From assembly GCA_003135555.1 (NCBI GenBank), contig PLCF01000060.1, positions 1 through 27,999 on the forward strand: a stretch of 27,999 nucleotides of DNA, written 5' to 3'. Position numbers and translations under genes: made by a program. Positions 4,952-23,502 of this stretch are shown here, one piece after another (position 1 is the stretch's first letter; every line of letters starts with the position of its first letter). The notes beneath the pieces are model-generated. The model was not told the DNA's origin. It ran no database searches and saw only the letters and a program-made list of their open reading frames with translations. Source of the stretch: Vulcanimicrobiota bacterium. Its GTDB lineage: Bacteria; Vulcanimicrobiota; Vulcanimicrobiia; Vulcanimicrobiales; Vulcanimicrobiaceae.

Positions 4952-6293
4952 GCTCACCTTCGTCGGCGCCGCCGGCACGGTCACCGGGAGCAAACATCTG
5001 CTGACCGTCGGCGGAAAGCATCTGTACATCGACTGCGGGATGTTCCAAGGCACGCGCCAGACGCAGGCGCTCAACGACGCGCCGCTGCCGATCGCGCCGG
5101 CGCAAACCGACGCGATCGTCATCACGCATGGTCACATCGATCACGTCGGCTACCTGCCCAAGATCGTGCACGACGGCTACGGCGGGCCGATCTACTGCAC
5201 GCCGGCGACGGCCGGGCTGATCGAGATCGTGCTCGAGGATGCCGCGCACTTGCAGCAGTACCTTTCACGCCGCGGCTACCAGCACGAGCTGCACGCGCCA
5301 CCGCCGTTCTACGACGATGCGGACGTGCAGGCGACGCTCAAGCTGCTGCACACGATCGCGCTCGAAACCGACTTCGACGTCTGTGGCACGGCGATGCGCT
5401 ATCGCAACGCCGCGCACATCCTGGGCTCGGCCTTCGTCGACGCGCACGTCGAGGGCCGGCGCGTGATCTTCTCGGGCGACCTGGGCCGCTACGGGCGCCC
5501 GCTGCTGTACGATCCCACCCCGCTCGAGACCGCCGACGTCGTCGTGTGCGAGACGACCTACGGCGACCGCCTCCATCCGCCCGACGCCCTGGGCGACTTC
5601 GAGAAGATCCTGCTCGACGGAATCGCACGCGGCGGGGCGATCGTGATTCCGGCGTTCGCGGTCGAACGGACGCAAGACATCCTGTACTCGATCGGGGTCC
5701 TGCAAGGACGTCACGCCGAGCTGGCCCGCACGCCGGTCCACGTCGACAGCCCGATGGCGATCAAGGTCGACGCGCTGTTCGCACGCTATCCCGATGCGCA
5801 CAAACCGTTCATCGACACGCCGGCACAGCCGTTCGGCTGCAGCGACGTGACCGTGCACGTGACGACCGAGGAGTCCAAGCAACTCAACGATCTGGCCGGC
5901 CCGGCGATCATCATCGCGGCAAGCGGGATGGCCAGCGGCGGGCGCATCCTGCACCACCTGCACAATCACATCCCCGACCCCACGGCGACGATCGTCTTCG
6001 CCGGCTTTCAGGGACCCGGCACGCTCGGCAACATCCTCGTGCACGGCGCGTCCACGGTGCGCATCTTCGGCGACACGCTCGAGGTGCGCGCGACGATCGT
6101 CAATCCCAGCGGTTACAGCGCGCACGCCGATCAGGCGGAGCTGCTGCGCTGGCTGGGCACGCTCACCACCAAGCCGCGCCTCTACGCCGTACACGGCGAG
6201 CCGGCCGCGGCCGAGGTGTTCGCGACAATGGTCCAGATGAAGCTCGGCTTCGACGCGAGCGTAGCCGAACGCGGCACGACCGTGACGCTGTGA
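4944..6293 (+). CDS. Metallo-beta-lactamase fold / beta-CASP RNA-processing hydrolase
   Basis: GAAGTVTGS, DCGMFQG, THGHIDHVG, HILGS, FSGDLG, ETTYGDR, PAFAVERTQ, SGMASGGRI, YSAHADQ and VHGE motifs. GGAGGA RBS before GTG 4944; overlaps the LOG stop. Confidence 0.93.
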   Translation: MAELTFVGAAGTVTGSKHLLTVGGKHLYIDCGMFQGTRQTQALNDAPLPIAPAQTDAIVITHGHIDHVGYLPKIVHDGYGGPIYCTPATAGLIEIVLEDAAHLQQYLSRRGYQHELHAPPPFYDDADVQATLKLLHTIALETDFDVCGTAMRYRNAAHILGSAFVDAHVEGRRVIFSGDLGRYGRPLLYDPTPLETADVVVCETTYGDRLHPPDALGDFEKILLDGIARGGAIVIPAFAVERTQDILYSIGVLQGRHAELARTPVHVDSPMAIKVDALFARYPDAHKPFIDTPAQPFGCSDVTVHVTTEESKQLNDLAGPAIIIAASGMASGGRILHHLHNHIPDPTATIVFAGFQGPGTLGNILVHGASTVRIFGDTLEVRATIVNPSGYSAHADQAELLRWLGTLTTKPRLYAVHGEPAAAEVFATMVQMKLGFDASVAERGTTVTL

Positions 6294-9343: not shown

Positions 9344-10048
9344 CTACGGCATCTGCGTCTGGCGGATCGCTTGCGCCCACTTGTCGCCGTCGACGCCTTG
9401 GGATACCGCTTCGAACTCGCGATAGAGCCGAACGGGATCGCGCATTTCACGGATCGTTCCGGTCCAGCTCGCCGACGGCGGCAGCACGAGGTTACCGTAA
9501 CCGAACATCCGTCCGAAGACGCCCTGCCACATCGTCGTCCCCGCCAGCGCAGTGTTGCCCAGCGGCGTGACGCGACGCCCGAAGAGCCCCTCGACTACGA
9601 AAACGCGGCGGTTCGTCGTCACGACGCGAAAGCCGAAGTAGCGGATGATGCGGCCGGCCAACGCGAAGCCCTCACGCAGCACGAGCAGCGCGGCGATGAC
9701 GAGCGTCGCGGTCCGCGCGATGCCGGTCAGCAAGGGCACGGTGATGTGATGGCCGCGCACGATCGGGTGGACGTCCCAGCCCAGCAGCGTTATCAGCACG
9801 ATCAGGATCACGACGACGTGGATCAGCGGCCGCACGAAGATCACCGGATGCGGCGAGCTGGCAAACGTTACGGCCTCCGTCGGCAGCAGCATCCCGGCCA
9901 GCTCCGCCGGCGCAGCCACCGTCACGACCGCGGCTTGCGCCGATATGCGCTGCATCGCGCGAGTGTCGTCCAAGAGCTCACCGTTAGCAGGCGTAACCGC
10001 GCCCGTACGGGCCGCCAGTTCGCTCGCAGGTTGATCCTCAGGTCGCAT
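9344..10048 (-). CDS. Bacterial PH-domain (bPH_2/YdbS-like) membrane protein
   Basis: Two TM segments followed by VVTTNRRVFVVEGLFGR...QGVFGRMFGYGNL. Confidence 0.75.
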   Translation of the reverse strand: MRPEDQPASELAARTGAVTPANGELLDDTRAMQRISAQAAVVTVAAPAELAGMLLPTEAVTFASSPHPVIFVRPLIHVVVILIVLITLLGWDVHPIVRGHHITVPLLTGIARTATLVIAALLVLREGFALAGRIIRYFGFRVVTTNRRVFVVEGLFGRRVTPLGNTALAGTTMWQGVFGRMFGYGNLVLPPSASWTGTIREMRDPVRLYREFEAVSQGVDGDKWAQAIRQTQMP

Positions 10049-10249: not shown

Positions 10250-10810
<561 letters not shown>

Positions 10811-10848
10811 CGGCTAACGCCGGATAGTCCCGAACAACACGGAAACAC

Positions 10849-10886
10849 GCAACATCCCAGCGGCGAAGGCGTCGTTGGGATGTTGC
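10849..10886. terminator. Hairpin between convergent genes, probable intrinsic terminator
   Basis: gcaacatccca...tgggatgttgc 11-bp stem; on the minus strand it is followed by gtgtttcc, just after the DUF5069 stop. Confidence 0.6.
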
Positions 10887-10889
10887 ACG

Positions 10890-11321
10890 CTACCCGCCGA
10901 GATAGCGTAGTGCATCGTCGGCTTCGAGGAGGTCGAACACAACGGTGTAACGTTCACGCAACGCGGCCGGATAGGCTTGCTCGAACGTCTCGCGCATGGA
11001 CTCGGGAGTTCGAGCGCTTTCGAACCCCTCCATCTTGGCGTTGATCTTGGGCTTGTCGAGCTCAGCGGTGCGTTCGAGCAACCAAACTTCGACGTCCGCC
11101 TCGGATTCGGCGGCTACGATGCACCGCTGCAAGGCGGTCAAGTCGATCTTCGTATAATACGCCCAGAGCTCACTAAAGCCGGTGAACGGAAAATAGCCGT
11201 TCAACTCGCCGCCCGGAAGTGCGGCGCGTAGCTTGTCGATGACTCGTGCCGTGAAAACGATCCCGGCAACCTGGGCTCGCGGACCACGCGGCGGTACGGC
11301 GAGAAAGCTCAACTGCTGCAT
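10890..11321 (-). CDS. DUF5069-like protein
   Basis: PRGPRAQVAGIVFTARVIDKLRA.L.G.L..Y...FDLLEADD pattern; ATG 11321 is the likely start. Confidence 0.7.
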   Translation of the reverse strand: MQQLSFLAVPPRGPRAQVAGIVFTARVIDKLRAALPGGELNGYFPFTGFSELWAYYTKIDLTALQRCIVAAESEADVEVWLLERTAELDKPKINAKMEGFESARTPESMRETFEQAYPAALRERYTVVFDLLEADDALRYLGG

Positions 11322-11541
11322 CCCGGGCACTACGCGAAGCCGAGTGCCGCTCCTTGCGCGCCGCGCCGCACCGGCAGCAACGGCTAAACGCTCCAAACAC
11401 TTGGGGCTACATCCCAACGACTGGCGATCCCCCAATAGCAAAAGATCGCCCAACAGCCCGTCCCGTAAGGCTTTGACCGTGGAATGACACGCTCAATTCT
11501 CTCACATCACGCCGCCCGCGAAAAGGCAGGGTGGACGGGGC

Positions 11542-11550
11542 TGATATAAT
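11542..11550 (+). promoter_or_regulatory. Extended -10 promoter (TGaTATAAT) for ncRNA copy 1
   Basis: TG-n-TATAAT; repeat unit 1 starts 5 nt after its last base. Confidence 0.7.
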
Positions 11551-11554
11551 CGTT

Positions 11555-11661
11555 GAACCTGCTGGGTAGCGCCACGAAATCGGGAGACCGAGGACACGTT
11601 CACCAGGGGCGGCGGAGGGTAGATCCCCCGCGGCAACGTCGGTCCCTCCGTCTTTTTATTT
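11555..11661 (+). ncRNA. Putative structured small RNA, copy 1 (family not recognised)
   Basis: Promoter upstream; GNRA hairpin tcgg-gaga-ccga; terminal stem ggcggaggg/ccctccgtc followed by TTTTTATTT; homologous to copy 2. Confidence 0.65.
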
Positions 11662-11687
11662 ACTGTGGTCGCGGGCCCTGATACAAT
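11659..11687 (+). promoter_or_regulatory. Sigma70-type promoter for ncRNA copy 2 (TTTACT-17 bp-TACAAT with TG extension)
   Basis: -35 TTTACT 11659-11664; TG 11679-11680; -10 TACAAT 11682-11687; same spacing to the unit as in copy 1. Confidence 0.7.
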
Positions 11688-11691
11688 CCTC

Positions 11692-11795
11692 GAACCTGCC
11701 GGGTAACGCGACGACCGGGAAACCGGGGCTACGTTCACCGGGGGCGGCGAGGGGGAGATCCTCAGCGGCAACGCTGGGCCCCTCGTCTTTTTGTT
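11692..11795 (+). ncRNA. Putative structured small RNA, copy 2 (family not recognised)
   Basis: GNRA hairpin ccgg-gaaa-ccgg; terminal stem ggcgagggg/cccctcgtc followed by TTTTTGTT; compensatory changes relative to copy 1. Confidence 0.65.
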
Positions 11796-11815
11796 GATCG
11801 TTGACATGCCGGCGG

Positions 11816-12994
11816 TCATCTATCTCGGCTGGCTCGCATGCTCGCCAGGACCTCGACGAGCGACTTAGGCGGATTCGCTGCGGCCACTCCTCTGGCTGTC
11901 GCCTGCGGGTTAAGCACGGCCCCATTCCGCTTGGATTTGGCGACCCGTCTGGGCTTGGAGTCTGCTTTAGCCTTGGCACGACGCTTAGGAGCATTTTCGC
12001 GCATCTTACGGCGCTTTGGATCCATTTCGCCGAGGGCGGAATTTTCACGACCTTGGTACCGCCCATCAATGGGAATCAAGACATCGAGCAACGCCCTCAA
12101 CTCGGCGGCCGCGAACCAGGTTGGGTCAAGTTCGACCATCTTCGCGCTTCCCTCATTCGCCGTATAACGCACAATCCCATAATGCTGCAACATCAGGATC
12201 GTGCGTCGAATGGCGCCGGGGTCTGTTGAGGAAGCGCCGCGGTGAAGGGTCATCACGTCTGCCGATCCCATGGCGGCCAAGGTCAGCAATGTCTCGGCTC
12301 TTGGGACGCTCCCGAAGCATTTGCCTATTACGAACTTGGCGCGAGGCTTCGCGTCGCCGTCACCAGCCGTGCATTCGATGGTCCTCGGCGGCCATTTTTC
12401 AGAAAGTTTTCGAAGCAGCGCGATGTATTGTTCTCTCGCCGGCAGTGCGCTGGAAATGTCAACGACGGCCCTCGTCGTTCTTCCGCGGCTCGGATTCAAT
12501 CTGCCGATCCAGCCATCGGACAACAAGAGCCGGTATGTCGATTGATTCATCCTGGTCGCAGCGAACAAGTCCGCGGGACGCATCGGGCCATTCACGGCCA
12601 AGGTCGTAAGCGTTCGAAAGCGGCTGACGGTTCCGAAGAGAAGCGGGGTCCCGTCATTCGAAGGTGCGATGCCGGTCGCGCGTTCGGCCTTGCCCTCAGC
12701 GCGTTCCCAATCGATCAGGCCGTGCCGCTTCGTCGCAGAGATGGGATTTTGCCATTCCTTGGCGTCGTCGCGAAGATCGAACTCGGGGAGCACTTTGAGA
12801 AGCGCTTTGGCATACGCGATCAATTGCCGCGTAGCGGGAAAGTTGCCGCTGATCGTGACGTAATCTCGTTCGACGGAGATGATCCAGCGGTCAACGAGAT
12901 TCTGCAGCATCCGCGCTCTTTGAACGCTGTTCGTTCGTTGGAAGCGTAGGTTCTCAACTAATCCGGAGACGCAACATACGTAGGCAATCTCCAA
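11816..12994 (-). CDS. Hypothetical protein with internal repeats resembling tandem winged-helix domains and a basic C-terminal tail
   Basis: LFGTVSRFRTLTTLAVNG...ISSALPAREQYIALLRKL versus CFGSVPRAETLLTLAAMG...LDPTWFAAAELRALLDVL. Start uncertain (TTG 12994 or ATG 12910). Confidence 0.6.
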   Translation of the reverse strand: MEIAYVCCVSGLVENLRFQRTNSVQRARMLQNLVDRWIISVERDYVTISGNFPATRQLIAYAKALLKVLPEFDLRDDAKEWQNPISATKRHGLIDWERAEGKAERATGIAPSNDGTPLLFGTVSRFRTLTTLAVNGPMRPADLFAATRMNQSTYRLLLSDGWIGRLNPSRGRTTRAVVDISSALPAREQYIALLRKLSEKWPPRTIECTAGDGDAKPRAKFVIGKCFGSVPRAETLLTLAAMGSADVMTLHRGASSTDPGAIRRTILMLQHYGIVRYTANEGSAKMVELDPTWFAAAELRALLDVLIPIDGRYQGRENSALGEMDPKRRKMRENAPKRRAKAKADSKPRRVAKSKRNGAVLNPQATARGVAAANPPKSLVEVLASMRASRDR

Positions 12995-13023
12995 ACAACG
13001 CGCAGAACGACATCAGTTCTGAC

Positions 13024-13542
13024 CTAATCCGCCCGACTGCTGCCGGCGTGCACGGCCGACTCTTCGATTTCCGACACGGTTGCCAGGCGTTGGAAGACAC
13101 CGTCTCTTTGAGCGTACGCAGCGATTCTCGGGTCGTCCCCGAGATCACCGAGTATTAAGAGGACCGGAGTGGCGCACTGCATCTTTGGGTCGGATGCGAT
13201 CTTGTGCATTTGTGCCCGGTCGCTCGGGCTCGCTTCTGGCAGGCCGCCGGGGTGATAGTGCCATTCTCCCAAGTAGTGCTGATCGGCACGCCACGCGCGC
13301 CTCAGCATCTCGTCGAGGCCGGCAATCCCACGGGTGAACCAGGTCGACCCTGATCTCGAATCATTCGGTGCTCCGGTTGCACGAAGAACCGTTGCGAGAT
13401 TCAGGTCCGCCGAATAGTACCCGATGAGGATGCCGCCAGTCTCTTTCGCTTTGGCCCGCGATGTCCGTCGGCGCATGTATTTTGCTACGTCGTCCGGCAA
13501 TTCGAGCAGCATGGTGTTGGAAGCGTCGGCGAATTTGATCAT
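13024..13542 (-). CDS. cap3: CBASS Cap3 JAB/MPN isopeptidase
   Basis: ETGGILIG...YLGEWHYHP...SPSD JAMM motif; ATGA overlap with the Cap2 stop. Confidence 0.92.
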   Translation of the reverse strand: MIKFADASNTMLLELPDDVAKYMRRRTSRAKAKETGGILIGYYSADLNLATVLRATGAPNDSRSGSTWFTRGIAGLDEMLRRAWRADQHYLGEWHYHPGGLPEASPSDRAQMHKIASDPKMQCATPVLLILGDLGDDPRIAAYAQRDGVFQRLATVSEIEESAVHAGSSRAD

Positions 13543-15308
13543 GCCGCGCGGAGCCAGATCGTCTCAAGCGAGGTTTCTGGAGACGTACCTCGCCTAACCC
13601 CCCGCTCGATGCCCTTGAGCATCTCGGCCGCCAGAATCTGCACGTCAGACCAGCGCGCGGGGAAAACTGGATTCCAGCACCCCGCACCGTGCATGGCCGC
13701 CAGGCCGCGCTCCGCTATCAGGTTCTTCTCCTCAGCAAACGGCTCGCGCATCGCGACCTTGTATCGCGCCGCGTCCGGTTGTTCCGCATGCTCGGAGTAC
13801 AGGAACAGACGACGAGCATCGACCCCGAGGGAGCCGACGAAGAACCACCTCTTTCGGCCGTTGCTCTTCTGACGCGCCAGGTGTCCGATTACGTCTTCAT
13901 TCGCCGTACAGTCGATAATCAGGTCGGCATCGTGCAGTGCCGAACGATCCTCATCCAGCCTTTGAGGAAACCAGCCGGCGACGTATCGAACGCGGGCAAA
14001 GGGAGAGACGGAGTTCAAGCGGGTCGCGAGCGCGCGCGCCTTGTACTGTCCCACCTCTTCCGCCGTGAGGACGTGCCTGCGGAGATTTCCCATCTCGAGC
14101 TTCTCGTGGTCGATGATGAGCAGATCGTTCAGACCTTCGCGGACAAGCATCTCGGCAAGGGCTGAACCGAGCGCGCCCGCACCGATAATCACGGTACGCA
14201 TGTTCCGTACCGCTTCGTCTAGGGAGCCGCGGACCCGCAGTCGCTGTTCGCTCCAGTTTTCGGATCGGAGCCATTGCAGCGGTTGATCGTCCGACAGCGT
14301 CCGCGCCAACTGAAACGGCCATGCACCTTGGCTTCCCGGGCGCGCGTGTGTGAGATGCTCACTCGGAATCGGCCGAGGAAGGCAAAGCGGCTGCCAGTGC
14401 ATTTGCGCTGGCGGTCCGTCATAGACGTCCGGGATCGGAAAGCCGATGAGGAGAACTTGGTCGCCCGTCAGGTTCGCTTCACGGATTTTGTGATAGATCC
14501 ATCGCAGACCGCCGTCGAAGTCGACGCCCATCTTGCGTGCGACCGCGCGCATCTCGCCCCACGTGTTCGGAACGTCCCACGGAGCGATCACGGGCATCTC
14601 GGGCAGCGACATCCAGAACACGGGAAGCGATTCCACGCTTGCGTCGATCCGCGCACCCCAACGCGATGGCGTTACGCTCGCGTCGCGCAGCAAGAACGAA
14701 TCGAGCGCGACGGTGTTCTCGCAAATTCTGCGTACGACGCACCGACCGAAACGGCCGAGAAGTGGCTGCCAGATCGCGAAGCGGTCGGGCGATTCGTCGA
14801 ATCCGACGACCGACGCATCGCTGTCGTCGGTGAAGCGCGGCAACTCGAACGGCTCTTCGGGTGCCGTAAGGGTGTCCTTCGCTGCGAATTCGAGCCACTT
14901 CAGCGCCATGCCGACGTGAAAGCGCAATTTCGCGACCGCTGAGTCGGGCTGTCCGGCCATCTCCAGGCTGCCCAGCCACCTCCCCGGACGATCAAGACAC
15001 GGTACGCCATTGCGCCAAAGACCGCCGTCATAATCGTTTCGCGTCATGTGTCGAAACGAGCGGTGCAGTCCGCCGTCCTGCGCTGGCTGAAAAGCCGCGA
15101 ATCCGAGCGGATACGCCGGGTCGATGCGGACGTACCAATCCGTCGTCGCGGGAACCATATCCGAAGGCTCCGCTATGGTGAGGCGAAGATGAATGACCCA
15201 CGACGGCAGCGTGCCATCGTGGGTCAAGGTGTCGGCGATCTCCACGCCTTCCATGTTTTCCAGCGCTTGAACGCCGAAACGCAAGTCGGGCGACGGTCGA
15301 AGTGCCAC
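13539..15308 (-). CDS. cap2: CBASS Cap2 E2-E1 (ThiF) ubiquitin-like transferase
   Basis: N-terminal E2-like WYVRIDPAYP...FRH...GVPCLD; C-terminal ThiF IIGAGALGS, GNLRRH, DLIIDCTAN, GAGCWNPVFPA. GTG 15308 lies 5 nt after the cyclase stop (alternative ATG 15254). Confidence 0.92.
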   Translation of the reverse strand: MALRPSPDLRFGVQALENMEGVEIADTLTHDGTLPSWVIHLRLTIAEPSDMVPATTDWYVRIDPAYPLGFAAFQPAQDGGLHRSFRHMTRNDYDGGLWRNGVPCLDRPGRWLGSLEMAGQPDSAVAKLRFHVGMALKWLEFAAKDTLTAPEEPFELPRFTDDSDASVVGFDESPDRFAIWQPLLGRFGRCVVRRICENTVALDSFLLRDASVTPSRWGARIDASVESLPVFWMSLPEMPVIAPWDVPNTWGEMRAVARKMGVDFDGGLRWIYHKIREANLTGDQVLLIGFPIPDVYDGPPAQMHWQPLCLPRPIPSEHLTHARPGSQGAWPFQLARTLSDDQPLQWLRSENWSEQRLRVRGSLDEAVRNMRTVIIGAGALGSALAEMLVREGLNDLLIIDHEKLEMGNLRRHVLTAEEVGQYKARALATRLNSVSPFARVRYVAGWFPQRLDEDRSALHDADLIIDCTANEDVIGHLARQKSNGRKRWFFVGSLGVDARRLFLYSEHAEQPDAARYKVAMREPFAEEKNLIAERGLAAMHGAGCWNPVFPARWSDVQILAAEMLKGIERGVRRGTSPETSLETIWLRAA

Positions 15309-15313
15309 GGCGG

Positions 15314-16384
15314 CTAAGCGAAGTGCCCCTTGGTCATCGACGCCTGCGCAGTGGGAGCCGTGTAGGCGGTGTACCTGCGGACGCGCTCCGGGAACGGCTC
15401 CCCGAAGACCTCGTGCCACGCGTCGATGCTTGCGTCGGCGTCGTCGAGATTGAGCGCGGCGCGCGCCTGGACCGCGGTTCGTTGAACGGCATCGTAGAAT
15501 AACGCGAACTGTTGAGGCGTGATCCGCGCGAAGACGTCGTGCGTAGGAACGCCGTGATCCGGGAGATAGGGACACGTTCCGTTGATGCGGTCGCCGTGAT
15601 AGTTGTGGACGATCCACTCGAGGGACAAGGTGAACCCCTCGGCGACGCTGCCGATGTGGTCGGGGCAGTTCTGGCCGATGAGATGCTCGAGCGGATAGCC
15701 CTTCGGATATTTTCCGTCGCACTTGTAGGCACGCCACCACTTGCCTGCCTTGACGACATTTACGTAGTGATCGTTGGTGTTCGCGTTCTTCTCGACGGTC
15801 CACGCGATTTGTTCGAGCGGATTCGTTTCTTCCCACATCGCCGCATCGCGGTCGGGAATCCACAACCCTTCGTTCTTCCAGTCCTGAACGCCGGCGGCTT
15901 TCTGGATGCGCTTCAGGCTCTCGCGCGTGAGATGCCCGACGAAATCGTCGCTGAGGCCGCTCTTACGGGCCTCTTTGAAGAACTTCTGCGTCGCTTCCGA
16001 CGGTGCGGACGTCGGAACGAGATCGAGTTTGATGTTGCCGACCTGAACGGCCCAGGAGCGGCTCTGCTGCTCGTATGCGCCGGAGTAGAACTCCTCGAGG
16101 AACGGGATGAACAGGTCGAGGGCCTGCCTTGCCGTCACGGCATTGCGGTCGAGATTCGTCACGACCACGATGTCGACGTCGGCACTCTTTCCGGGCTCGG
16201 GCTTGACGCCGGTGTGCCGGCGATACGAACCTTGAAGAAACGTATCGACGATGATACCTTTCAGCGGTTCGTAGGCCTCGAGTTCCTTGCGGAACATTTC
16301 GTGCGCTTCTTTCGCTTCTTGACGAAGCGCGTCGGGCAGGCGGATCTCGGTCAGGAAATCCTTGAACGATTGATTGGCTTCCAT
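15314..16384 (-). CDS. CBASS cGAS/DncV-like nucleotidyltransferase (CD-NTase), CdnD-like
   Basis: FLQGSYRRHT...ADVDIVV, DLVPT, TNPL, VVKAGKWWR and PKGYPLEH motifs; C-terminus GHFA, like the G-x-F-A/G tails conjugated by Cap2. Confidence 0.93.
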   Translation of the reverse strand: MEANQSFKDFLTEIRLPDALRQEAKEAHEMFRKELEAYEPLKGIIVDTFLQGSYRRHTGVKPEPGKSADVDIVVVTNLDRNAVTARQALDLFIPFLEEFYSGAYEQQSRSWAVQVGNIKLDLVPTSAPSEATQKFFKEARKSGLSDDFVGHLTRESLKRIQKAAGVQDWKNEGLWIPDRDAAMWEETNPLEQIAWTVEKNANTNDHYVNVVKAGKWWRAYKCDGKYPKGYPLEHLIGQNCPDHIGSVAEGFTLSLEWIVHNYHGDRINGTCPYLPDHGVPTHDVFARITPQQFALFYDAVQRTAVQARAALNLDDADASIDAWHEVFGEPFPERVRRYTAYTAPTAQASMTKGHFA

Positions 16385-16400
16385 GATAATCGCCGCTCCT

Positions 16401-17921
16401 TTACGCGGTGTTGAGGAGAATGGAGGGCGAGTATCCCTCGGGGTCATTGCGCTCCAGCGCGAACTCGTACAGTTGTGTGGGGCCGAGGCGGCTGCCGGCG
16501 CGGCCCATCGTGAACGCCACCGTGGCGGGCACGGCCGGAAGAACATGCAGCAGTTGCCGACGCTGCTCGGACGTGCGTTCCCGGTTCACGATCTCCGCGA
16601 AGGTCTCGCCGAGATCGAAGGCGTGCGCGCCATCCCGCACCGCACGTTGGCCACTCCCTCCGACGGGGCGAAGAACAAGGAGCCGACCGACCGAGGGAAT
16701 CCGATTTTCGATGTATGTACGCGCGTCTGCGCCGGAGTCGCTACTGACGGCAACGGCAACCGCAACGTCGGGGGCATCCTCGCGCAAGCGGATGTCTTCG
16801 ACCATCCATGTGTCGTCGGCAGTCGCACCCGCGCCCTCAGTCAGCCGCCAGATTTCGACACCACGCGGACCTGTCTGCCGGAACGAATAGCGCGTGCTGG
16901 ATTTGCGCGAGACCGCACCGCCGGCCGCGTATGCGATGGACAGTTTGCAGTGCAGATGGAGTTCGACGTCGCTGCGGCGGTCGTCGTCGAGGCTGGAAAC
17001 GAAGTCGTCCACGCGCGGTCCGACATCGTTGCTCCAGGTCAGGCCGTCGCGGAGATAGCGGTCGTCGAACAGGTCGAGCAGATCGAGCAACTCGTCCATC
17101 TCTTCTTCGAGGTACGTTGCCTGGCGTTTGAAGGAGCGAATGCCGACGCGCCACGGTTCCGCGACCGGCGCTTCGACGTTTTCGAGCAGCTCTTCCTTTT
17201 CGAAAAGTACGCGCAGTTGCGCGGCGTCGAGCGGGCCCGTCTTCGCCTGGATGAGTTTGCGGGCGAGTTCGTCGTAGACGTTGATTTGGCGATCACCGAC
17301 GGTCTTGAATCGGAATCGCGCAAGACGGTCATCGAGCCGACGTTGCAGCCGGACAAGCGACGAATCGTTGCGAATGCGCCAGCGCGATACCGCGCTCCGC
17401 AGTTCCGCTTCGTCGCACCCGATATGCTCGATCAAGGCCGCGCGCATCTTGGCGGCATCCGACTTCAGTTTATCGTCGAAGAGCGCCGAAACGATGAACT
17501 CGTCGTCGACGTTGCTGACCATCTTCGCCAGCGCGTCTTCGGGATGGAACGACCAGGGTGTCGTCAGGTAGAGGGCCGCGCGCCCTTTGTGCTGCCGGTC
17601 GGCGGCGACCAACCGCTGCATGAGCGACATCTTCTTGACGTTCATCCACGCCGGGGACATCATGCTCTCCCAGGAGAGCGAACCGTCGGGCCGCACGTGG
17701 AATTTCGCTTGGTGGCACTCGATGTCGTAGTCGAGCCCGTGGCCGTCGTTGTAGATGACCACGACGTCGTCGAAGTGCGTGTACTCGCTCTGCTCGATGC
17801 CGACGCGCGCCACCCGCGGATGCGGGTCGAGCATCCGCAGCGCCTCAAGCCAAAAGAGCCGGGCTTGATAATCTCCGCCTTGATCGCGCGCCGCGACGGC
17901 ACCGGCCGTTCCTGAGGTCAT
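16401..17921 (-). CDS. cap4: CBASS Cap4-type effector: N-terminal restriction-like dsDNA nuclease plus C-terminal SAVED domain
   Basis: GGDYQARLFWLEA...FDDVV...QAKFHV nuclease motif; SAVED-like LHLHCKLSIAYAAG...Q...LHVLPAVPATVAFTMGR...QLYEF...YSPSI. Confidence 0.9.
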   Translation of the reverse strand: MTSGTAGAVAARDQGGDYQARLFWLEALRMLDPHPRVARVGIEQSEYTHFDDVVVIYNDGHGLDYDIECHQAKFHVRPDGSLSWESMMSPAWMNVKKMSLMQRLVAADRQHKGRAALYLTTPWSFHPEDALAKMVSNVDDEFIVSALFDDKLKSDAAKMRAALIEHIGCDEAELRSAVSRWRIRNDSSLVRLQRRLDDRLARFRFKTVGDRQINVYDELARKLIQAKTGPLDAAQLRVLFEKEELLENVEAPVAEPWRVGIRSFKRQATYLEEEMDELLDLLDLFDDRYLRDGLTWSNDVGPRVDDFVSSLDDDRRSDVELHLHCKLSIAYAAGGAVSRKSSTRYSFRQTGPRGVEIWRLTEGAGATADDTWMVEDIRLREDAPDVAVAVAVSSDSGADARTYIENRIPSVGRLLVLRPVGGSGQRAVRDGAHAFDLGETFAEIVNRERTSEQRRQLLHVLPAVPATVAFTMGRAGSRLGPTQLYEFALERNDPEGYSPSILLNTA

Positions 17922-18225: not shown

Positions 18226-18447
18226 TCAGCCGGCCCGGCCCTTCGCCGGATCGACGTACTGGGCTTCCTCTCGGCCCGGCAGGATCACGTAGGCATCCAT
18301 GGAGTCGGTCCCGGGCATTCCGCCGGGCGGCGTCGCCATGATGTTGCCGTACATGTTCTTGTAGGCACGGATCTCGGGCTCGGTGCCGACGTTCACTTCG
18401 CGGCCGTCGAATGGACCGCCGAGAAGTTTGATCGTGCGAGTGCCCAT
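18226..18447 (-). CDS. Small hypothetical protein (73 aa, LxGGPxDG motif)
   Basis: MGTRTIKLLGGPFDGREV...; ATG immediately downstream of a LexA-type box. Confidence 0.55.
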   Translation of the reverse strand: MGTRTIKLLGGPFDGREVNVGTEPEIRAYKNMYGNIMATPPGGMPGTDSMDAYVILPGREEAQYVDPAKGRAG

Positions 18448-18448
18448 A

Positions 18449-18462
18449 CGAACGTATGTTCG
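18449..18462. promoter_or_regulatory. LexA/DinR-type SOS box CGAAC-N4-GTTCG
   Basis: cgaacgtatgttcg matches the Bacillota/Actinomycetota-type LexA consensus and sits between two divergent ORFs. Confidence 0.7.
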
Positions 18463-18559
18463 ATACGGACCGGTTGCGATCCCTGGCGCCGCCGACCATC
18501 TTTCACAGCCGGTCGAGCTGCATTTACGATCCGTTGGCTTCGACGAGAAAGAGCCCAGC

Positions 18560-20767
18560 ATGAGAGTCCGAGTGCACAGCCTCCTGAGACCGATCCGATT
18601 CGGCGTCCTGTCGGACACCTCGACGCCCGAAGGCGTTCTGCAGGCCATCAAGGTCAACAGTTTCCTCTGGGGCGGCTCGTTCAATCCGGTCGTCCCGGCA
18701 GTCGACTTGGTTCCGACGTTGTGGGCGGATAAGGATGTTGTCGGGCAAGACTGGACCGCTGAATCGTTGCTCGACGGTTTTCTCCACGCATTTGATCCGG
18801 ATGCACTCGTCGTGTTTCCAGAGGCCAAACTGCACGGGCGTGATCTTTCGGCGTGGCAACAGGCGAGTCGGGAAGACATCATGCGCACGCAGCACACGAT
18901 GGCGCAAAGCCGTTATGGTGTCACGCTGTTCGAAGCGGCACGCGCATTCGTGGAACGAGAAGAACGCTACCCCGACCGAGATCCGGTGCATCTCGTTCAA
19001 CCGAAACTACCCAATGAGTGGCGGATGCTCGAGGCGCTGCTCTATGGCATCGAGCCGGACGATTTTGACCATCTGCTGGACCAGGCCGTAGGAACATCCA
19101 TCCGCATCGAACGGCCAGCGACGACACTTGATGCCTGCCTGGAATACCTTGTTCCGAACATGCTTTCGGTTCGCCGGCTTGGCGGCTACGATCTGAATCA
19201 TCGTCGACGTTCGACATCGTTTTATCTCTTCGATGCGCAGGACCATGAGCAAGTCTTGGATTTTCTCGCGTTGCGAGCGCAGAACCACAACCTCATTCCG
19301 ATCACGGTGCAGGCGACCGAATCGGAGCGCTTCGTCAATTCCGTCCGCGCCCTGCATGTTGAAGATCGCGCGCTTTTCTTCATCTCGCTCGGCGTACCCC
19401 ACGCTACGTGGGGCGATCACCTCGCACGGTTGGCGCTGCCGAATCCGTCCGTCCAGCCTCGCAACTTCCTCACGCCGTTTTCGAACGGCAAGCGAGTATG
19501 GGCCCGTATCGGCGTTGAACGATCTGTCTCGTTACCGATTGAGGATGGCGGCGTTACCGTTCAACTCGATCAGCCCTTCGGTGGCAACTTCGACGAGGGC
19601 TTCGGTGGTCTACTCTTCGCCAGCGATGTCGGCTTGTGGTGGTACGACGCGAAGCGTCTTCCGCCCGACGTGATGCCTGCGGGCATCCGCACGGTGTGGT
19701 CGCCGTCGACGTACTATCACCTGATGCATGGTCGCATCTCGTCGGGTGGCATTACGTTTTACAATCACCTTGGCGGCGAGGAGACCTTCCCGCTTCCCGA
19801 TGCGACGGCGATTGTGCGCGATCAATACCGCCTGAAGGGGTGGTCGGCGGTGCCATCCGATGAAGGACTCCGCGCATCGCAGGCGCTCTCGTTCATTGGC
19901 GGCGTCCTAAACGCGTGGTGGGTCATGAACAATGCCTCGTTCGAGGTTCTCACTTCGTCGGACATTGGAAGCGCGGGTGAAATCGGGGCGAAGAACTGGT
20001 ACGTCGCGCTAAAGAGAAAGGGGCTTCAAGAGAGCGAGATCGAGGGCGTGACCCGGTCATTGCTCGACATGGACATCCTGATAGTGGGGCTGCAATTCAA
20101 GTGCACGACTTGCAACAGATCGCCGTGGTACCCGCTGCGCGACTCGGCGACGTCAATGGAGTGCACGTTCTGCCGGGGCACGGTGAAGCCGCCGGCCGAG
20201 TCGGCCAAGGCACTCCAGGAGTCATGGACCTACCGTCTCCAGCGTCCGTTGGACGATCCAAAGCATCGGTCCAACCTCTTCGGTATCTTCGCCGCGGCCG
20301 GATACTTCGTCCATGTCCGAGGCGACGAGGTGACGGTGTCGTTGGGGCTCGACCTTGCGAATGGCGACCTTAAATCCGAGATCGACCTTTCTGTTCTGAT
20401 GGCCGAGCGCGGTGCGGAATTCGGTTCCGATCCGACACAGATTTTCGTGGAGGCGAAAGGCATCGCAGCCAAGTTCACCGAGTCCGACATCGGAAGTTTC
20501 ACGCGGGTCCTCGCCGATCTCCCGAATGCAGCCTTTTTCTTCACCACGCTGCGTTCAGAACTTACCGAACCGGAGAAAACGCTCATCACTGATTTTGCAG
20601 CGCTCGGGGTAGCACAACACGCCGTCGGAGTGCTGACACCGCATGAAATGATGGAGCATCGCAATTTCAATGACCGGTACTTGAACGCCATAAATCATGG
20701 CGCGATCTACGAGGTCTGCGAATTGACGCGGGCGCGATACCTTCAGGTGGCCGCAGCTCCGGCTTAG
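18560..20767 (+). CDS. Large hypothetical protein (735 aa) with Zn ribbon and C-terminal PD-(D/E)xK-like nuclease motif
   Basis: CTTC...CTFC; EIDLSVL...IFVEAKG...F...D; ATG 18560 after GAGAAAGAG. Confidence 0.7.
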   Translation: MRVRVHSLLRPIRFGVLSDTSTPEGVLQAIKVNSFLWGGSFNPVVPAVDLVPTLWADKDVVGQDWTAESLLDGFLHAFDPDALVVFPEAKLHGRDLSAWQQASREDIMRTQHTMAQSRYGVTLFEAARAFVEREERYPDRDPVHLVQPKLPNEWRMLEALLYGIEPDDFDHLLDQAVGTSIRIERPATTLDACLEYLVPNMLSVRRLGGYDLNHRRRSTSFYLFDAQDHEQVLDFLALRAQNHNLIPITVQATESERFVNSVRALHVEDRALFFISLGVPHATWGDHLARLALPNPSVQPRNFLTPFSNGKRVWARIGVERSVSLPIEDGGVTVQLDQPFGGNFDEGFGGLLFASDVGLWWYDAKRLPPDVMPAGIRTVWSPSTYYHLMHGRISSGGITFYNHLGGEETFPLPDATAIVRDQYRLKGWSAVPSDEGLRASQALSFIGGVLNAWWVMNNASFEVLTSSDIGSAGEIGAKNWYVALKRKGLQESEIEGVTRSLLDMDILIVGLQFKCTTCNRSPWYPLRDSATSMECTFCRGTVKPPAESAKALQESWTYRLQRPLDDPKHRSNLFGIFAAAGYFVHVRGDEVTVSLGLDLANGDLKSEIDLSVLMAERGAEFGSDPTQIFVEAKGIAAKFTESDIGSFTRVLADLPNAAFFFTTLRSELTEPEKTLITDFAALGVAQHAVGVLTPHEMMEHRNFNDRYLNAINHGAIYEVCELTRARYLQVAAAPA

Positions 20768-20771
20768 GCAG

Positions 20772-21650
20772 TCAGGTCCCCGGTTTGACGATCATCTCAC
20801 CGTCTTCCAGCGTGCCGAACAGCAGGCGGTCGAACTGACCGATGGTCGCCGGCAGACGGCCGCGGATTCCATCCATCGAAAGCGACGGGACCTGCATCGG
20901 GTCGGTCAAGATCAACGCGAGCCAGATTGGCCGACCCTGGGTGTACGTCTTGGTCATCTTGTCGCGCAGCCGTTCGTCGAAATCGTCCGCCGATTCGTCC
21001 GGGTCGAACGTGTGCGCGTCAATGTTCATCGACATCGCCGTTGCCGTGCCTTGACCGATGTAGTATTTCGCGCCGATTTTGCCGAGGATCGGCGCGATGG
21101 CCGGGTCCGGCTTCAGGAACTTCTTGCGCTGCATTGTCGCGAAATCAGTGGCGTAGAAGACAGCGATGATCTCGTCCGGGACGGCGCGCGTCTCGCGGCT
21201 GGTGGGAATGCTCGGAAAGCGATATTCCACGAATCGTCCGCTCAGCGCAGCGGCGTAGCCTGCATCGGAATTATACCGCTCGGTCAGCGCGCCGTTGATC
21301 GACTTCACCGCACTCGCCGCTCGAGCCGCGCCGCTCGCCGTGACCTGGGCGACCTCGACGTAGATCTCACGGCCACCGGTCAGCGTAACCGCGAGATCGG
21401 GTTCAGGCGGGACGCGGTTCTCGATGTTGACGATTTCCGAGTCGATGCCGTTCGCGACCGCGAGAAGCGCAAAGGATAGCGCCTCGACAAACTCCTTGCC
21501 GTCGTAGTCGGGAACGTGATCGCCAAACGGTTGCCCCCGGTAGGATATCCGCATGAGCCGGCGGCGGCGGTCATCGTCGTCCGAAATGCTGCCAGCGTTC
21601 AAGTTGTCCAAGACGCCGTATTGTTCACGCAGTGTCCTCGGTTTCTGCAT
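20772..21650 (-). CDS. Hypothetical protein, possible PD-(D/E)xK-fold nuclease
   Basis: PPEPDLAV...IYVEVAQV motif with later DKMTKTY...WLALI. The start may be downstream (ATG 21554) because TATAAT overlaps the 21650 ATG. Confidence 0.55.
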   Translation of the reverse strand: MQKPRTLREQYGVLDNLNAGSISDDDDRRRRLMRISYRGQPFGDHVPDYDGKEFVEALSFALLAVANGIDSEIVNIENRVPPEPDLAVTLTGGREIYVEVAQVTASGAARAASAVKSINGALTERYNSDAGYAAALSGRFVEYRFPSIPTSRETRAVPDEIIAVFYATDFATMQRKKFLKPDPAIAPILGKIGAKYYIGQGTATAMSMNIDAHTFDPDESADDFDERLRDKMTKTYTQGRPIWLALILTDPMQVPSLSMDGIRGRLPATIGQFDRLLFGTLEDGEMIVKPGT

Positions 21651-21699: not shown

Positions 21700-22515
21700 C
21701 TAAAGGCTCTTAAAGATATCCGTGACCTCGACAACGCGTGCGCACATCGCCTCAAGGTCTGCAAGATCGATCCCAGTGTCGCCGACGCTCTTGCCGATGG
21801 CGGGCGTTATGAAATGAACGCTCACGGTAAAGTCCGCTTCGCAGACGATATCTGTGGGAACTGGTGTAGCGAAACGGACCCTTGCGAAGTGAAACTCTTT
21901 ATCGGGTTCCCAAGAGTCGAATTTTGCAACGCGCTCAATGTCGCTGATGGTACGACCACTATGCGTGATTTCTACCTTTCCCCCGACAAACAGGGGAGCG
22001 TAACTTGCAATGATTCGGTGCTTGTCGGCGTTTGAGAATTCATGCACCAAGGAGAGGTTGACGAGTCGCGGGTTTACCTTTTCGTGAAACGGTTGCAGAT
22101 CCCAAATCTCTTGAAGGCCGTGGACAATGTCTTTCAAATACCCCTTAAGATTCACGACCGTCGAGGCTCCGACGGCGTGGACGTATGCGGACTCATCGGT
22201 GAAAATCGGGAATTGATGGCTCTTGCTAACCTCCGTACCGCTGGCGTAAGCCAGGGCAGTGATGATGTAATCAAGCGCGGATCGGAGATTGTGCACGAGG
22301 TCGCCGACGATGATCCCGAGGTTTAGTTCTTTCGTGAAATCTTCGTTCATCAAGTAGAGCGAACACCAGCCGGTTTGCAGATCGACTGTCTGCCGAATGC
22401 TGAATGTATGTCGCTCGGAGAGAACCCGCGAAATCTCTTCCTTGAGGGACTCGAGGTGTACGCGCGCTCTTGCGACCTTTGCGTATGAGGGCGAAAGGTC
22501 GAGGCCCAGCGGCAC
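21700..22515 (-). CDS. Hypothetical protein, possibly HEPN-like helical family
   Basis: AKVARARVHL...GDLVHNLRSALDY...FPI...SNADKHR pattern; A/T-richer codon usage. Confidence 0.6.
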   Translation of the reverse strand: MPLGLDLSPSYAKVARARVHLESLKEEISRVLSERHTFSIRQTVDLQTGWCSLYLMNEDFTKELNLGIIVGDLVHNLRSALDYIITALAYASGTEVSKSHQFPIFTDESAYVHAVGASTVVNLKGYLKDIVHGLQEIWDLQPFHEKVNPRLVNLSLVHEFSNADKHRIIASYAPLFVGGKVEITHSGRTISDIERVAKFDSWEPDKEFHFARVRFATPVPTDIVCEADFTVSVHFITPAIGKSVGDTGIDLADLEAMCARVVEVTDIFKSL

Positions 22516-22800
22516 GATTACTTAAAACCAATGTCCATTTGGGCCCAGAACTACCGTCCGGTGAGATTCGTTTTCAGGAAGCCGCCTTTGCTTCGACGAG
22601 TGGGTCCATCTTATCGGCCACGGCGAGAGCCCACGTCTTCCACTCCTCGTTCGGTTCGAGCGCGCCGGCGGCCGCGGCGACGTAAACGCGCAACCCCACG
22701 GCCTTGCGCCACCGGAAATGTTCGGTTCGGCCGCCGCCGCAATCATTTGGGTTAGTGAACCGGGGGCCGGCCGTCGCTGAGCATGTTAGAATGGACGGTC

Positions 22801-22920
22801 ATGCAGACCATCGGCCCGTGCGGCTCTGCGGCATCGAGCGGCCGCTCGAAGAAAGCCATCTCACCCCGAAGTTCCTCAAGCGCCGCCTGGTCCGGGATTC
22901 CGGCACGGGCAGCCGCTGCC
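22801..22920 (+). pseudogene. Frameshifted fragment of a C-x2-C...SH-x2-P (HNH-like) protein
   Basis: MQTIGPC in one frame continues as RLCGIERPLEESHLTPKFL in another; adding one base restores CRLC...SHLTPKF. No long downstream ORF. Confidence 0.4.
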
Positions 22921-23078
22921 GGCGGAGTGGTACCGAGTCAAAGGCGTCGACCTCGACGACCTCGCGTTCGCGAATGAAATCATTGACGAAGATGCGGAGA
23001 CGCCGGCCCTGCCTGCGGACACGCCGACATCGCACAACGACGCCGACGGTTGGGATGAGACGGCCCAATAACGAAAAT

Positions 23079-23135
23079 GCTCCATCCCACTGACTGCGCG
23101 CCGATGGGCGATCTCGCTAGTCGTTGGGATGGAGC
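23079..23135 (-). terminator. Hairpin downstream of ssrA, probable terminator
   Basis: gctccatccca/tgggatggagc stem; followed by ATTTTCGTT on the minus strand. Confidence 0.6.
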
Positions 23136-23142
23136 AAACACT

Positions 23143-23502
23143 TGGTGGAGCTGCCGGGGAGCCGCCCCCCGGGTCCGAAAAGCCGGACCGCCGCTTTCTC
23201 CAGGCTCAGCACCGATTTTGTCTTGAGCGCGTCAGCTTCTCGGTACAGGAATCAGACGCGCCGCAGTTCCGGTTGAGTTTCGGACGCCTCTCGGAACGGT
23301 CTCCGCGTCCTAGCCGAACTTGTTGACCGCCTGGAGGACGGCATCGGCGACCTCCCCCGGACGGTGACTGTTAACCTAGAAGGTTAGGCAGCCAGAGCGT
23401 ATTCGTTGTTCGCGTGTAAAACGCTGTGATCGTTTTAGGAGGGCTCACAACTCCGCCTGCTTACGTCGGCCACGGATCTCCCCGTCGAGACTACTCAGCC
23501 CC
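23143..23502 (-). ncRNA. ssrA: tmRNA (one-piece), tag peptide ANNEYALAA* encoded at 23413-23384
   Basis: 5' GGGGCTGAGTAGTCTCGAC; 3' CAGCTCCACCA, giving an acceptor stem with G3:U; internal GCG AAC AAC GAA TAC GCT CTG GCT GCC TAA; 360 nt. Confidence 0.96.

Follow-up and report, generated by a model that had tools for sequence, protein, structure and literature searches.

Tandem repeat units at the edge of a CBASS island

The window analysed here, a 27,999-nucleotide (nt) stretch of contig PLCF01000060.1 from a Vulcanimicrobiota bacterium, carries two diverged direct repeats at one end of an island that contains a type II cyclic-oligonucleotide-based antiphage signalling system (CBASS) and borders the transfer-messenger RNA (tmRNA) gene, ssrA (Table 1). 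A preliminary description of the locus had read these repeats as two independently promoted and terminated, structured small RNA (sRNA) genes. This core reading is supported by orthologues of both units at a metagenomic locus, L062, by covariation of paired positions and by retention of the GNRA loops and the promoters, suggesting that the pair is likely to represent two real sRNA genes of a new, rare and island-borne family.

The unit starts are spaced by 137 bp, and 83 of 106 aligned columns are identical between units 1 and 2. Both units open with GAACC (11555 and 11692), and in each case four bases separate the -10 box from the conserved GAACCUGC start. A GC-rich hairpin followed by T5 (11653-11657 and 11788-11792) closes each unit. 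All earlier sequence statements on the tandem repeats were rechecked and stand, including those on the TG-extended -10 boxes, on TTTACT 17 bp upstream of the second box and on the GC stem with T tract at the end of each copy. In a promoter scan of 10800-13100, promoter 2 was the sole site (1 found versus 0.5 expected), and neither terminator was listed in a simple terminator scan because the stems carry a bulge. It appears that each gene possesses its own sigma-70-type extended -10 promoter and its own intrinsic terminator. The general attributes of a trans-acting sRNA gene (own promoter, intrinsic terminator, non-coding nature and conserved structure) can all be read from the sequence.

Orthologues and a conserved terminal block

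The preliminary description had proposed a homologue search with a covariance model (CM). Orthologues of both units were found at a single locus, L062, retrieved with a stricter sequence pattern from a metagenome collection (units at 6000-6104, 121.5 bits, and 6136-6239, 115.7 bits). Window 11401-11796 and L062 5846-6241 align over 397 bp at 93.7% identity, and the two loci share no further alignable DNA. The units are part of a discrete ~395-bp conserved block (11401-11796) with unrelated flanks. This block is absent from the preliminary description, as are the copy of ssrA-terminator sequence at its start and the membership of the neighbouring 5'-truncated gene in a rare family that recurs beside the RNAs in L062. 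Divergence within this block is graded, with 6/31 positions differing in the inter-unit spacer, 9/188 in the rest of 11578-11796 and 1 position in the leader at 11402-11512. Despite the differing spacer positions, promoter 2 of L062 retains the TG and has a -10 of TATACT. The TGn and -10 box lie four bases ahead of the conserved start in 4/4 copies and in a distant candidate described below, though they are absent from the covariance model, and the hairpin with T tract is present in every copy.

The leader contains three ATC(N0-2)CCCAA(C/T) repeats and a 9-bp inverted repeat, TTGACCGTG-N6-CACGCTCAA, at 11473-11496. Its fold z-score is only -1.4, and the indels between its versions exclude a coding role.

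Contigs from four of 20 DNA metagenome runs (X4, X5, X6 and X10) were aligned to 11300-11900, with only the covered parts being read. A contig from a wetland run represents the L062 form. A 2646-nt contig from a moss run carries the leader and one unit (11402-11657) followed by unrelated sequence, with copy-2 states in the 3' stem at 11615, 11616, 11620 and 11627; a second contig of this run, of 7012 nt, covers 11718-11792 only. A contig from a peat run joins 11526 to 11678, giving another one-unit form. The left junction at 11401/11402 is constant in the contigs of the 4 runs and in L062, with at least three different left flanks. In L062, three tandem GGAAATTT units (5815-5845) stand directly before this junction, and a similar flank is seen in a peat contig of run X4. 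Each unit of L062 and the window is closer to its counterpart than to its own neighbour, and the duplication is therefore older than the split of the loci. These further forms indicate that copy number varies by unequal crossing-over and that the block behaves as one piece.

Predicted fold and covariation

Minimum free energy (MFE) folding of the + strand gave one architecture common to both copies. The 5' part is an irregular hairpin consisting of P1 (CC/GG plus CYGG/CCRG), P2 (ARCG/CGUU) and P3, interrupted by two conserved internal loops and closed by a GNRA loop (GAGA or GAAA), while the 3' part is the terminator hairpin with a 6-7-nt bulge on its 5' side and a GCAA cap. Fold z-scores against shuffled sequences were -2.4 for copy 2 and -0.3 for copy 1, the latter being poor because of two mismatches in the upper 3' stem.

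All the compensatory differences named in the preliminary description are present between the window copies, namely U-A/C-G at columns 10/52 and 27/38, G-C/A-U at 62/95 and A-U/G-C at 63/94, as are the GNRA loops GAGA/GAAA and GCAA. The bulge and the GCAA apex, described as invariant, are so within the window but not in the L062 orthologues, where AGACCC, GCGA and GUAA occur. Across the four copies of the window and L062, 98.3% of pair cells are paired and five pairs covary with both sides changed (10/52, 27/38, 62/95, 63/94 and 76/87), compared to 0 such pairs in six slid controls, and the covariation score was reached by 0/500 shuffles. None of the 12 differences between window and L062 orthologues breaks a pair: two create pairs that are missing in window copy 1 (C76>G and U90>G), one changes C-G to U-G, three preserve GNRA loops (GAGA>GAAA, GCAA>GCGA and GCAA>GUAA), and all the remaining differences fall in unpaired columns. 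By a rough estimate, 12 random changes would spare all pairs less than once in a thousand. The G-U pairs at columns 7/55, 59/98 and 16/46 are compatible with the + strand only. These data support the view that the units encode structured RNAs under selection, rather than being DNA repeats alone.

Further homologue searches and a probable distant relative

A second model, R2, built from the four copies, was run over 150 genomes of the phylum and 150 of the family. It matched a single unit, hereafter the G140 candidate, at G140:C2:1114342-1114438 on the minus strand (50.7 bits). TGcTATGCT stands four bases ahead of its start, its P3 is capped by GCAA and contains three both-side-changed pairs, and its terminator stem is of the copy-2 type. 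Adding this candidate raises the number of both-side-changed pairs to 10, in an alignment fitted to the model. Because its own MFE prefers a different 5' hairpin, it is graded as probable, not certain, and it is probably a distant single-copy relative. The candidate is located 167 nt inward from the far end of a 75.7-kb element (G140:C2:1114151-1189964; loci L078, L081 and L082), which is bordered by tRNA-Val(TAC), with a tyrosine integrase 194 nt away, and at the far end by a nearly full-length degenerate tRNA copy that scores 34 bits on the Rfam tRNA model and is not called by ARAGORN. Other R2 matches, in G105, G131, G242 and G305 (27-31 bits), were rejected, the one in G305 lying inside long open reading frames (ORFs) with neither promoter nor T tract.

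Elsewhere the searches gave little. No second copy was found in the source genome (84% complete), and blastn in 60 relatives returned 7 short chance matches. Model R1 gave 3 weak matches (23-27 bits) in the 43 other genomes of the genus, which were rejected with alignments lacking the 5' domain or the pairs, and the leader sequence was not found in the 43 genus genomes; these genus counts include an unpublished genome, G032, in which the tmRNA was matched and the RNA and the leader were not. The plasmid and phage collections gave no match. Four patterns applied to viral contigs yielded 0, 24, 0 and 0 loci (0/24 confirmed by CM), and an exact-pattern scan of 185,579 species genomes yielded 16 loci, 0/16 of them CM-confirmed at the pattern site, with at least ~8 chance matches expected by estimate.

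Comparison with known RNA classes

At the gathering thresholds of Rfam 15, the whole window gave the tmRNA only and no family on the units, in agreement with the unrecognised RNA family proposed earlier; no relevant match was obtained for the L062 block or the G140 candidate. A permissive scan of 11400-11900 returned BjrC68 (12 bits, gathering 39) and, as the best near-miss, ctRNA_p42d (RF00489; 19.1 bits, gathering 50). The latter is similar to the units in its GCAA-loop terminator hairpin with a U tail and in its convergent or antisense setting near a DNA-binding-protein gene of a mobile replicon, but the match (E 0.19) covers only the 3' hairpin of unit 2, and the units do not overlap the neighbouring gene. 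Among the literature on CBASS, defence-island and structured non-coding RNAs covered by a limited search, such an RNA was not found reported, which is no proof of absence.

The trans-acting sibling sRNAs PrrF1/PrrF2, OmrA/OmrB and AbcR1/AbcR2 are likewise adjacent ~100-nt paralogues with a conserved core, each with its own promoter and Rho-independent terminator. Unlike these, the present units lie on a mobile island end instead of the core genome and have no identifiable target seed, and they are unrelated to the siblings in sequence or Rfam; their two GNRA caps and the conservation of the internal loops point to a folded RNA that binds a protein or a ligand. A riboswitch or leader RNA would be followed by a gene on the + strand, and none stands after either unit, the next real gene being on the minus strand. 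IS110 bridge RNAs, IS1111 seekRNAs and TnpB/IscB omega RNAs are non-coding RNAs encoded at mobile-element ends. The units resemble them in being structured, with conserved internal loops, and in lying within a few hundred bases of the end of a mobile element, beside junction sequence. However, a search of the ORFs of the island and of L062 gave no IS110/IS1111 recombinase and no TnpB/IscB domain. Local alignments between the RNAs and the junctions scored no better than shuffles, apart from GGGGCUAC, an 8-nt identity confined to unit 2 (p ~0.05-0.1).

The four-winged-helix gene and CBASS

Table 1 Coordinates of the predicted sRNA units and of the features around them in the window.
Feature	Position	Strand	Remarks
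10-nt AAACACTTGG	11395-11404	+	Immediately left of the block; partner at 23136-23145 overlaps the tmRNA CCA end
Leader	11401-11540	+	Non-coding; first ~55 nt repeat the ssrA terminator's 5' arm and loop nearly identically in inverted orientation, with a 16-nt insertion
Promoter 1 (putative)	11542-11550	+	TG-extended -10 TGaTATAAT (TG 11542-11543, TATAAT 11545-11550), no recognisable -35; identical in L062
sRNA unit 1 (predicted)	11555-11658	+	5' three-helix hairpin with GAGA cap, bulged terminator hairpin with GCAA cap, U tract
Promoter 2 (putative)	11659-11687	+	TTTACT 11659-11664, 17-nt spacer, TGaTACAAT (TACAAT 11682-11687)
sRNA unit 2 (predicted)	11692-11794	+	Architecture as unit 1, loops GAAA and GCAA; fold z -2.36
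Four-winged-helix family gene (P0002/P0003)	11816-12994	-	392 aa; convergent with the units; N-terminally truncated
Type II CBASS operon	13024-17921	-	Cap4-like endonuclease-SAVED 16401-17921; CD-NTase within 15314-16546; Cap2 E1/E2 within 13539-15863; Cap3 JAB 13024-13542
ssrA terminator hairpin	23079-23136	-	5' arm and loop copied, inverted, at the leader start
tmRNA gene, island anchor	23143-23502	-	Rfam 108.6 bits

As the preliminary description noted, the units converge on a winged-helix transcript at the edge of the CBASS island, and the same arrangement is seen in L062. The 392-amino-acid (aa) product in the window misses ~150 N-terminal aa and the small C-terminal domain of its relatives, full-length members being 450-520 aa long. 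This family is very small, as evidenced by a search of 5.8 billion sequences that gave 6 proteins at E<=0.001, the window's own included. The closest relative is P0004 (77%), for which an AlphaFold2 model (predicted local distance difference test score 70) contains four helix-helix-helix-strand-strand units. A fold search with the winged-helix model retrieved generic tandem winged-helix proteins only (TFIIIC, ScpB and MarR/ArsR; best E 1.4e-3), and feature searches gave MarR/IclR/ArsR-type domains and generic winged-helix arrays. The 5' truncation of the gene falls exactly where the CBASS operon abuts (Cap3 stop 13024), and the loss of its first ~150 codons may be due to replacement by the CBASS cassette.

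PADLOC recognised the cyclase (4.5e-124), E1-E2 (3.3e-151), JAB (2.6e-47) and endonuclease-SAVED effector (1.3e-120) of the window operon, the components of a complete type II CBASS. In L062, the units converge on a 487-aa member of the winged-helix family, which shares 37% identity with P0004; the gene after it encodes 104 aa with homology to the C-terminal extension of P0005, and further upstream lie JAB, E1/E2 and a DncV-like cyclase, with PADLOC subtypes that differ from those of the window and no CBASS effector seen within the 12 kb examined. The order of type II CBASS, winged-helix gene and RNA block is found in 2/2 long contexts, a co-occurrence that had been proposed as a check. The RNA block is 94% identical between the loci, compared to 37% between the L062 protein and P0004.

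The island at the tmRNA gene

The GC content is 0.52-0.63 between ~10.8 and 23.1 kb, versus ~0.70 outside, and the drop ends at the tmRNA gene. AAACACTTGG occurs only twice in the window (0.02 copies expected), bracketing the 11.7 kb from the RNA block to the tmRNA CCA end. Just inside its two copies lie ~38-nt inverted, near-identical sequences (11406-11460 and 23097-23135), an arrangement reminiscent of terminal inverted repeats with a duplicated target or of a sequence inverted at the ssrA terminator. The 12-mer CATCCCAACGAC has exactly three occurrences in the 3.57-Mb assembly, all in the window, at 10871 (-), 11410 (+) and 23120 (-). The possibility that the ssrA-proximal hairpin is an element-borne attachment (att) arm was rejected; it is a native terminator, since a related hairpin stands right after the tmRNA in 11/11 genus loci. 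Two other species of the genus have a second ssrA terminator hairpin downstream of the tmRNA, at 0.93 kb in G002 (C4) and at 6.4 kb in G011 (C17), which suggests small hairpin-flanked islands there.

A third hairpin of the ssrA-terminator type, with a T-rich run after it on the minus strand, is located at 10849-10887, just past a DUF5069 gene (10890-11453), and may mark the outer border of an older island layer. A bPH-domain gene, found between DHODH and the tmRNA in 6/11 loci of relatives (L064, L065, L068, L069, L072 and L074), lies in the window at 9344-10048 (-), 13 kb away on the other side of ssrA, and this displacement points to rearrangement around ssrA. From these borders we infer that the block lies at the distal recombination junction of an ssrA-flank island, a junction that may have arisen by integration, inversion or transposition. 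Compared with islands known at tmRNA genes, the low-GC island starting from the ssrA 3' flank and the duplication of ssrA-flank sequence at the borders (here and in G002 and G011) are alike, whereas the window island has no recognised integrase, and its duplicate at the RNA end runs in the opposite orientation and is accompanied by a 10-nt direct repeat.

Elsewhere in the island lie ORFs without a family match, at 18383-20767 (+), 20772-21650 (-), 21700-22515 (-) and 22704-23093 (+), with the GC content falling to 52% at 21.6-22.5 kb. The 794-aa ORF belongs to a ~800-aa hypothetical family (Atlas 0.98) with faint hints of Mrr/Card1-like nucleases. These ORFs are possibly additional defence genes.

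Discussion

From the conserved signals, the fold and the pattern of substitution, it is likely that the units specify genuine transcribed structured RNAs. Several points weigh against this reading or its extension to function. Transcription of every copy is read from sequence signals alone. Window copy 1 is no more stable than its shuffles (z -0.29). The comparisons amount to two that are effectively independent, between paralogues and between orthologues, plus one uncertain distant relative, so the covariation statistics are thin, and kinship alone, without structure, can let related sequences beat shuffles. The G140 candidate, with its deviating MFE hairpin, shares no protein neighbours with the window or L062 and points toward its junction instead of away from it. 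The association with CBASS and the winged-helix gene has n = 2, and the window winged-helix gene is truncated yet the RNAs look intact, which makes an obligatory partnership less convincing. The window island contains no recognised recombinase (0 matches to PF00589 on the contig), and its mobility is for this reason deduced from the junctions only. Finally, conserved complementarity to island mRNAs was not found, and the partner is a guess.

The block could instead be mainly a DNA element, with an att arm or terminal repeats, in which the 137-bp repeats serve as binding arrays or hairpin-forming DNA for a recombinase, partition or winged-helix protein and the promoters and terminators are incidental. 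In line with this, it begins exactly at the junction sequence copied from the ssrA terminator and preceded by the 10-nt repeat, its leader, in which short repeats and an inverted repeat of 9 bp occur, is better conserved than the RNAs, and the neighbouring protein is an array of winged helices of the DNA-binding type. However, the compensatory changes and kept GNRA loops indicate folded single strands, the G-U pairs function on the + strand only, and the extended -10 boxes and T tracts stay at fixed distances in every copy while the spacer drifts. We consider this explanation improbable for the units, and it may be valid for the leader without applying to them. The strand opposite the units might also encode a protein. 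The preliminary description found no credible ORF common to the copies; a 105-codon minus-strand ORF (11502-11819) does span both, and ~27 codons of each are read in one frame, a 2-nt indel having brought the spacing from 137 to 135, so that the statement holds only in the sense that this ORF does not look coding. Its frame is open in both the window and L062, and its ATGA overlap with the stop of the 392-aa gene would allow translational coupling. Against this, two indels (11577 and 11524) shift the frame between the orthologues, the ungapped part shows no synonymous excess (6 synonymous and 8 non-synonymous of 14 codon changes), and the proline-rich, low-complexity product matches no Pfam, PHROG or other family. 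Furthermore, relatives of the 392-aa protein stop where it stops or run into an unrelated small domain, and long spurious ORFs are common in a genome of ~65-70% GC. A coding role is thus the least probable of the alternatives considered.

If the units are RNAs, their position within a defence island raises the question of whether they are antitoxins or immunity RNAs (type I or type III-like) against a toxic product of the island, and tandem RNA genes together with an antisense minus-strand ORF overlapping the units in both loci would suit such a role. In ToxI-type systems, short units are cut out of a single transcript that precedes a co-oriented endoribonuclease toxin gene. The present units are comparable to them as tandem RNA repeats in a defence context, but they are 137-bp units, each separately promoted and terminated, and the downstream gene is convergent and of the winged-helix type. 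No toxin gene was found in the window by PADLOC, Pfam or NCBIfam, no ToxN/AbiQ-, CptN-, TenpN-like or other conserved toxin candidate is adjacent, with both flanks differing between the loci, and the antisense ORF has the frame shifts, the non-synonymous changes and the lack of a family match described above. With no toxin-like neighbour conserved, the antitoxin reading lacks support and is very improbable. Only slightly less remote is a role as CBASS accessory RNAs, which would bind the CD-NTase, a Cap protein or the cyclic-nucleotide signal and tune activation. A type II CBASS stands within 1.2-2.8 kb in 2/2 long loci, of different subtypes, a phage RNA reportedly activates a staphylococcal CBASS cyclase, and two GNRA caps with conserved internal loops are closer to ligand- or protein-binding RNAs than to linear seed sRNAs. 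On the other hand, defence genes cluster anyway and two loci are few, the G140 candidate has no CBASS in the 20 kb examined, neither known cyclic-dinucleotide riboswitches nor any Rfam family is matched, and the winged-helix gene separates the RNAs from CBASS, with presumably independent transcription of the two.

Returning to the sRNA reading, the pair derives from the duplication of an entire promoter-RNA-terminator unit before the split of the two known loci, with unequal crossing-over continuing to yield one-unit forms. Together the leader (~150 bp) and the pair make up a ~395-bp block that ends a mobile island inserted in the tmRNA gene's 3' flank, the leader, with its repeats, preferably being regarded as control or recombination DNA. 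The RNAs may act in trans for the island backbone, not as cargo, most likely by binding a protein, with the adjacent four-winged-helix protein as the preferred partner, or alternatively by pairing with mRNA; either mode would set island maintenance or the expression of neighbouring defence genes. A folded, protein-binding RNA is favoured because of the two capped irregular helices, the lack of an obvious linear seed and the failure of the searches for conserved complementarity. Whole-length duplex folding against targets gave uniformly strong, uninformative energies in this GC-rich DNA, and the RNAs shared reverse-complement k-mers with both islands no more often than expected by chance (two 9-mers). 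That the RNAs are island-backbone regulators is a tentative proposal, to which we give somewhat less than an even chance, and direct partnership with the four-winged-helix protein is rather unlikely. In a bolder version, which is improbable, the block would be the RNA part of a new type of island backbone, in which junction RNAs and a dedicated four-winged-helix protein control or direct site-specific movement into tmRNA or tRNA flanks, or it would be a cofactor or brake of CBASS; if the latter were true, this would be the first island-encoded RNA tied to CBASS.

The units would add a structurally well-defined family of sRNAs that have two GNRA-capped domains and a duplicated transcription unit and are carried by mobile anti-phage islands in uncultured bacteria of peat, moss and wetland. 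Should they prove to be ordinary clade-specific riboregulators, they would be a routine addition to sRNA catalogues. If they regulate the island, the four-winged-helix protein or CBASS, they would represent a rare RNA component in the upkeep or control of defence islands. In metagenomes, the block would further serve as a marker of such island ends.

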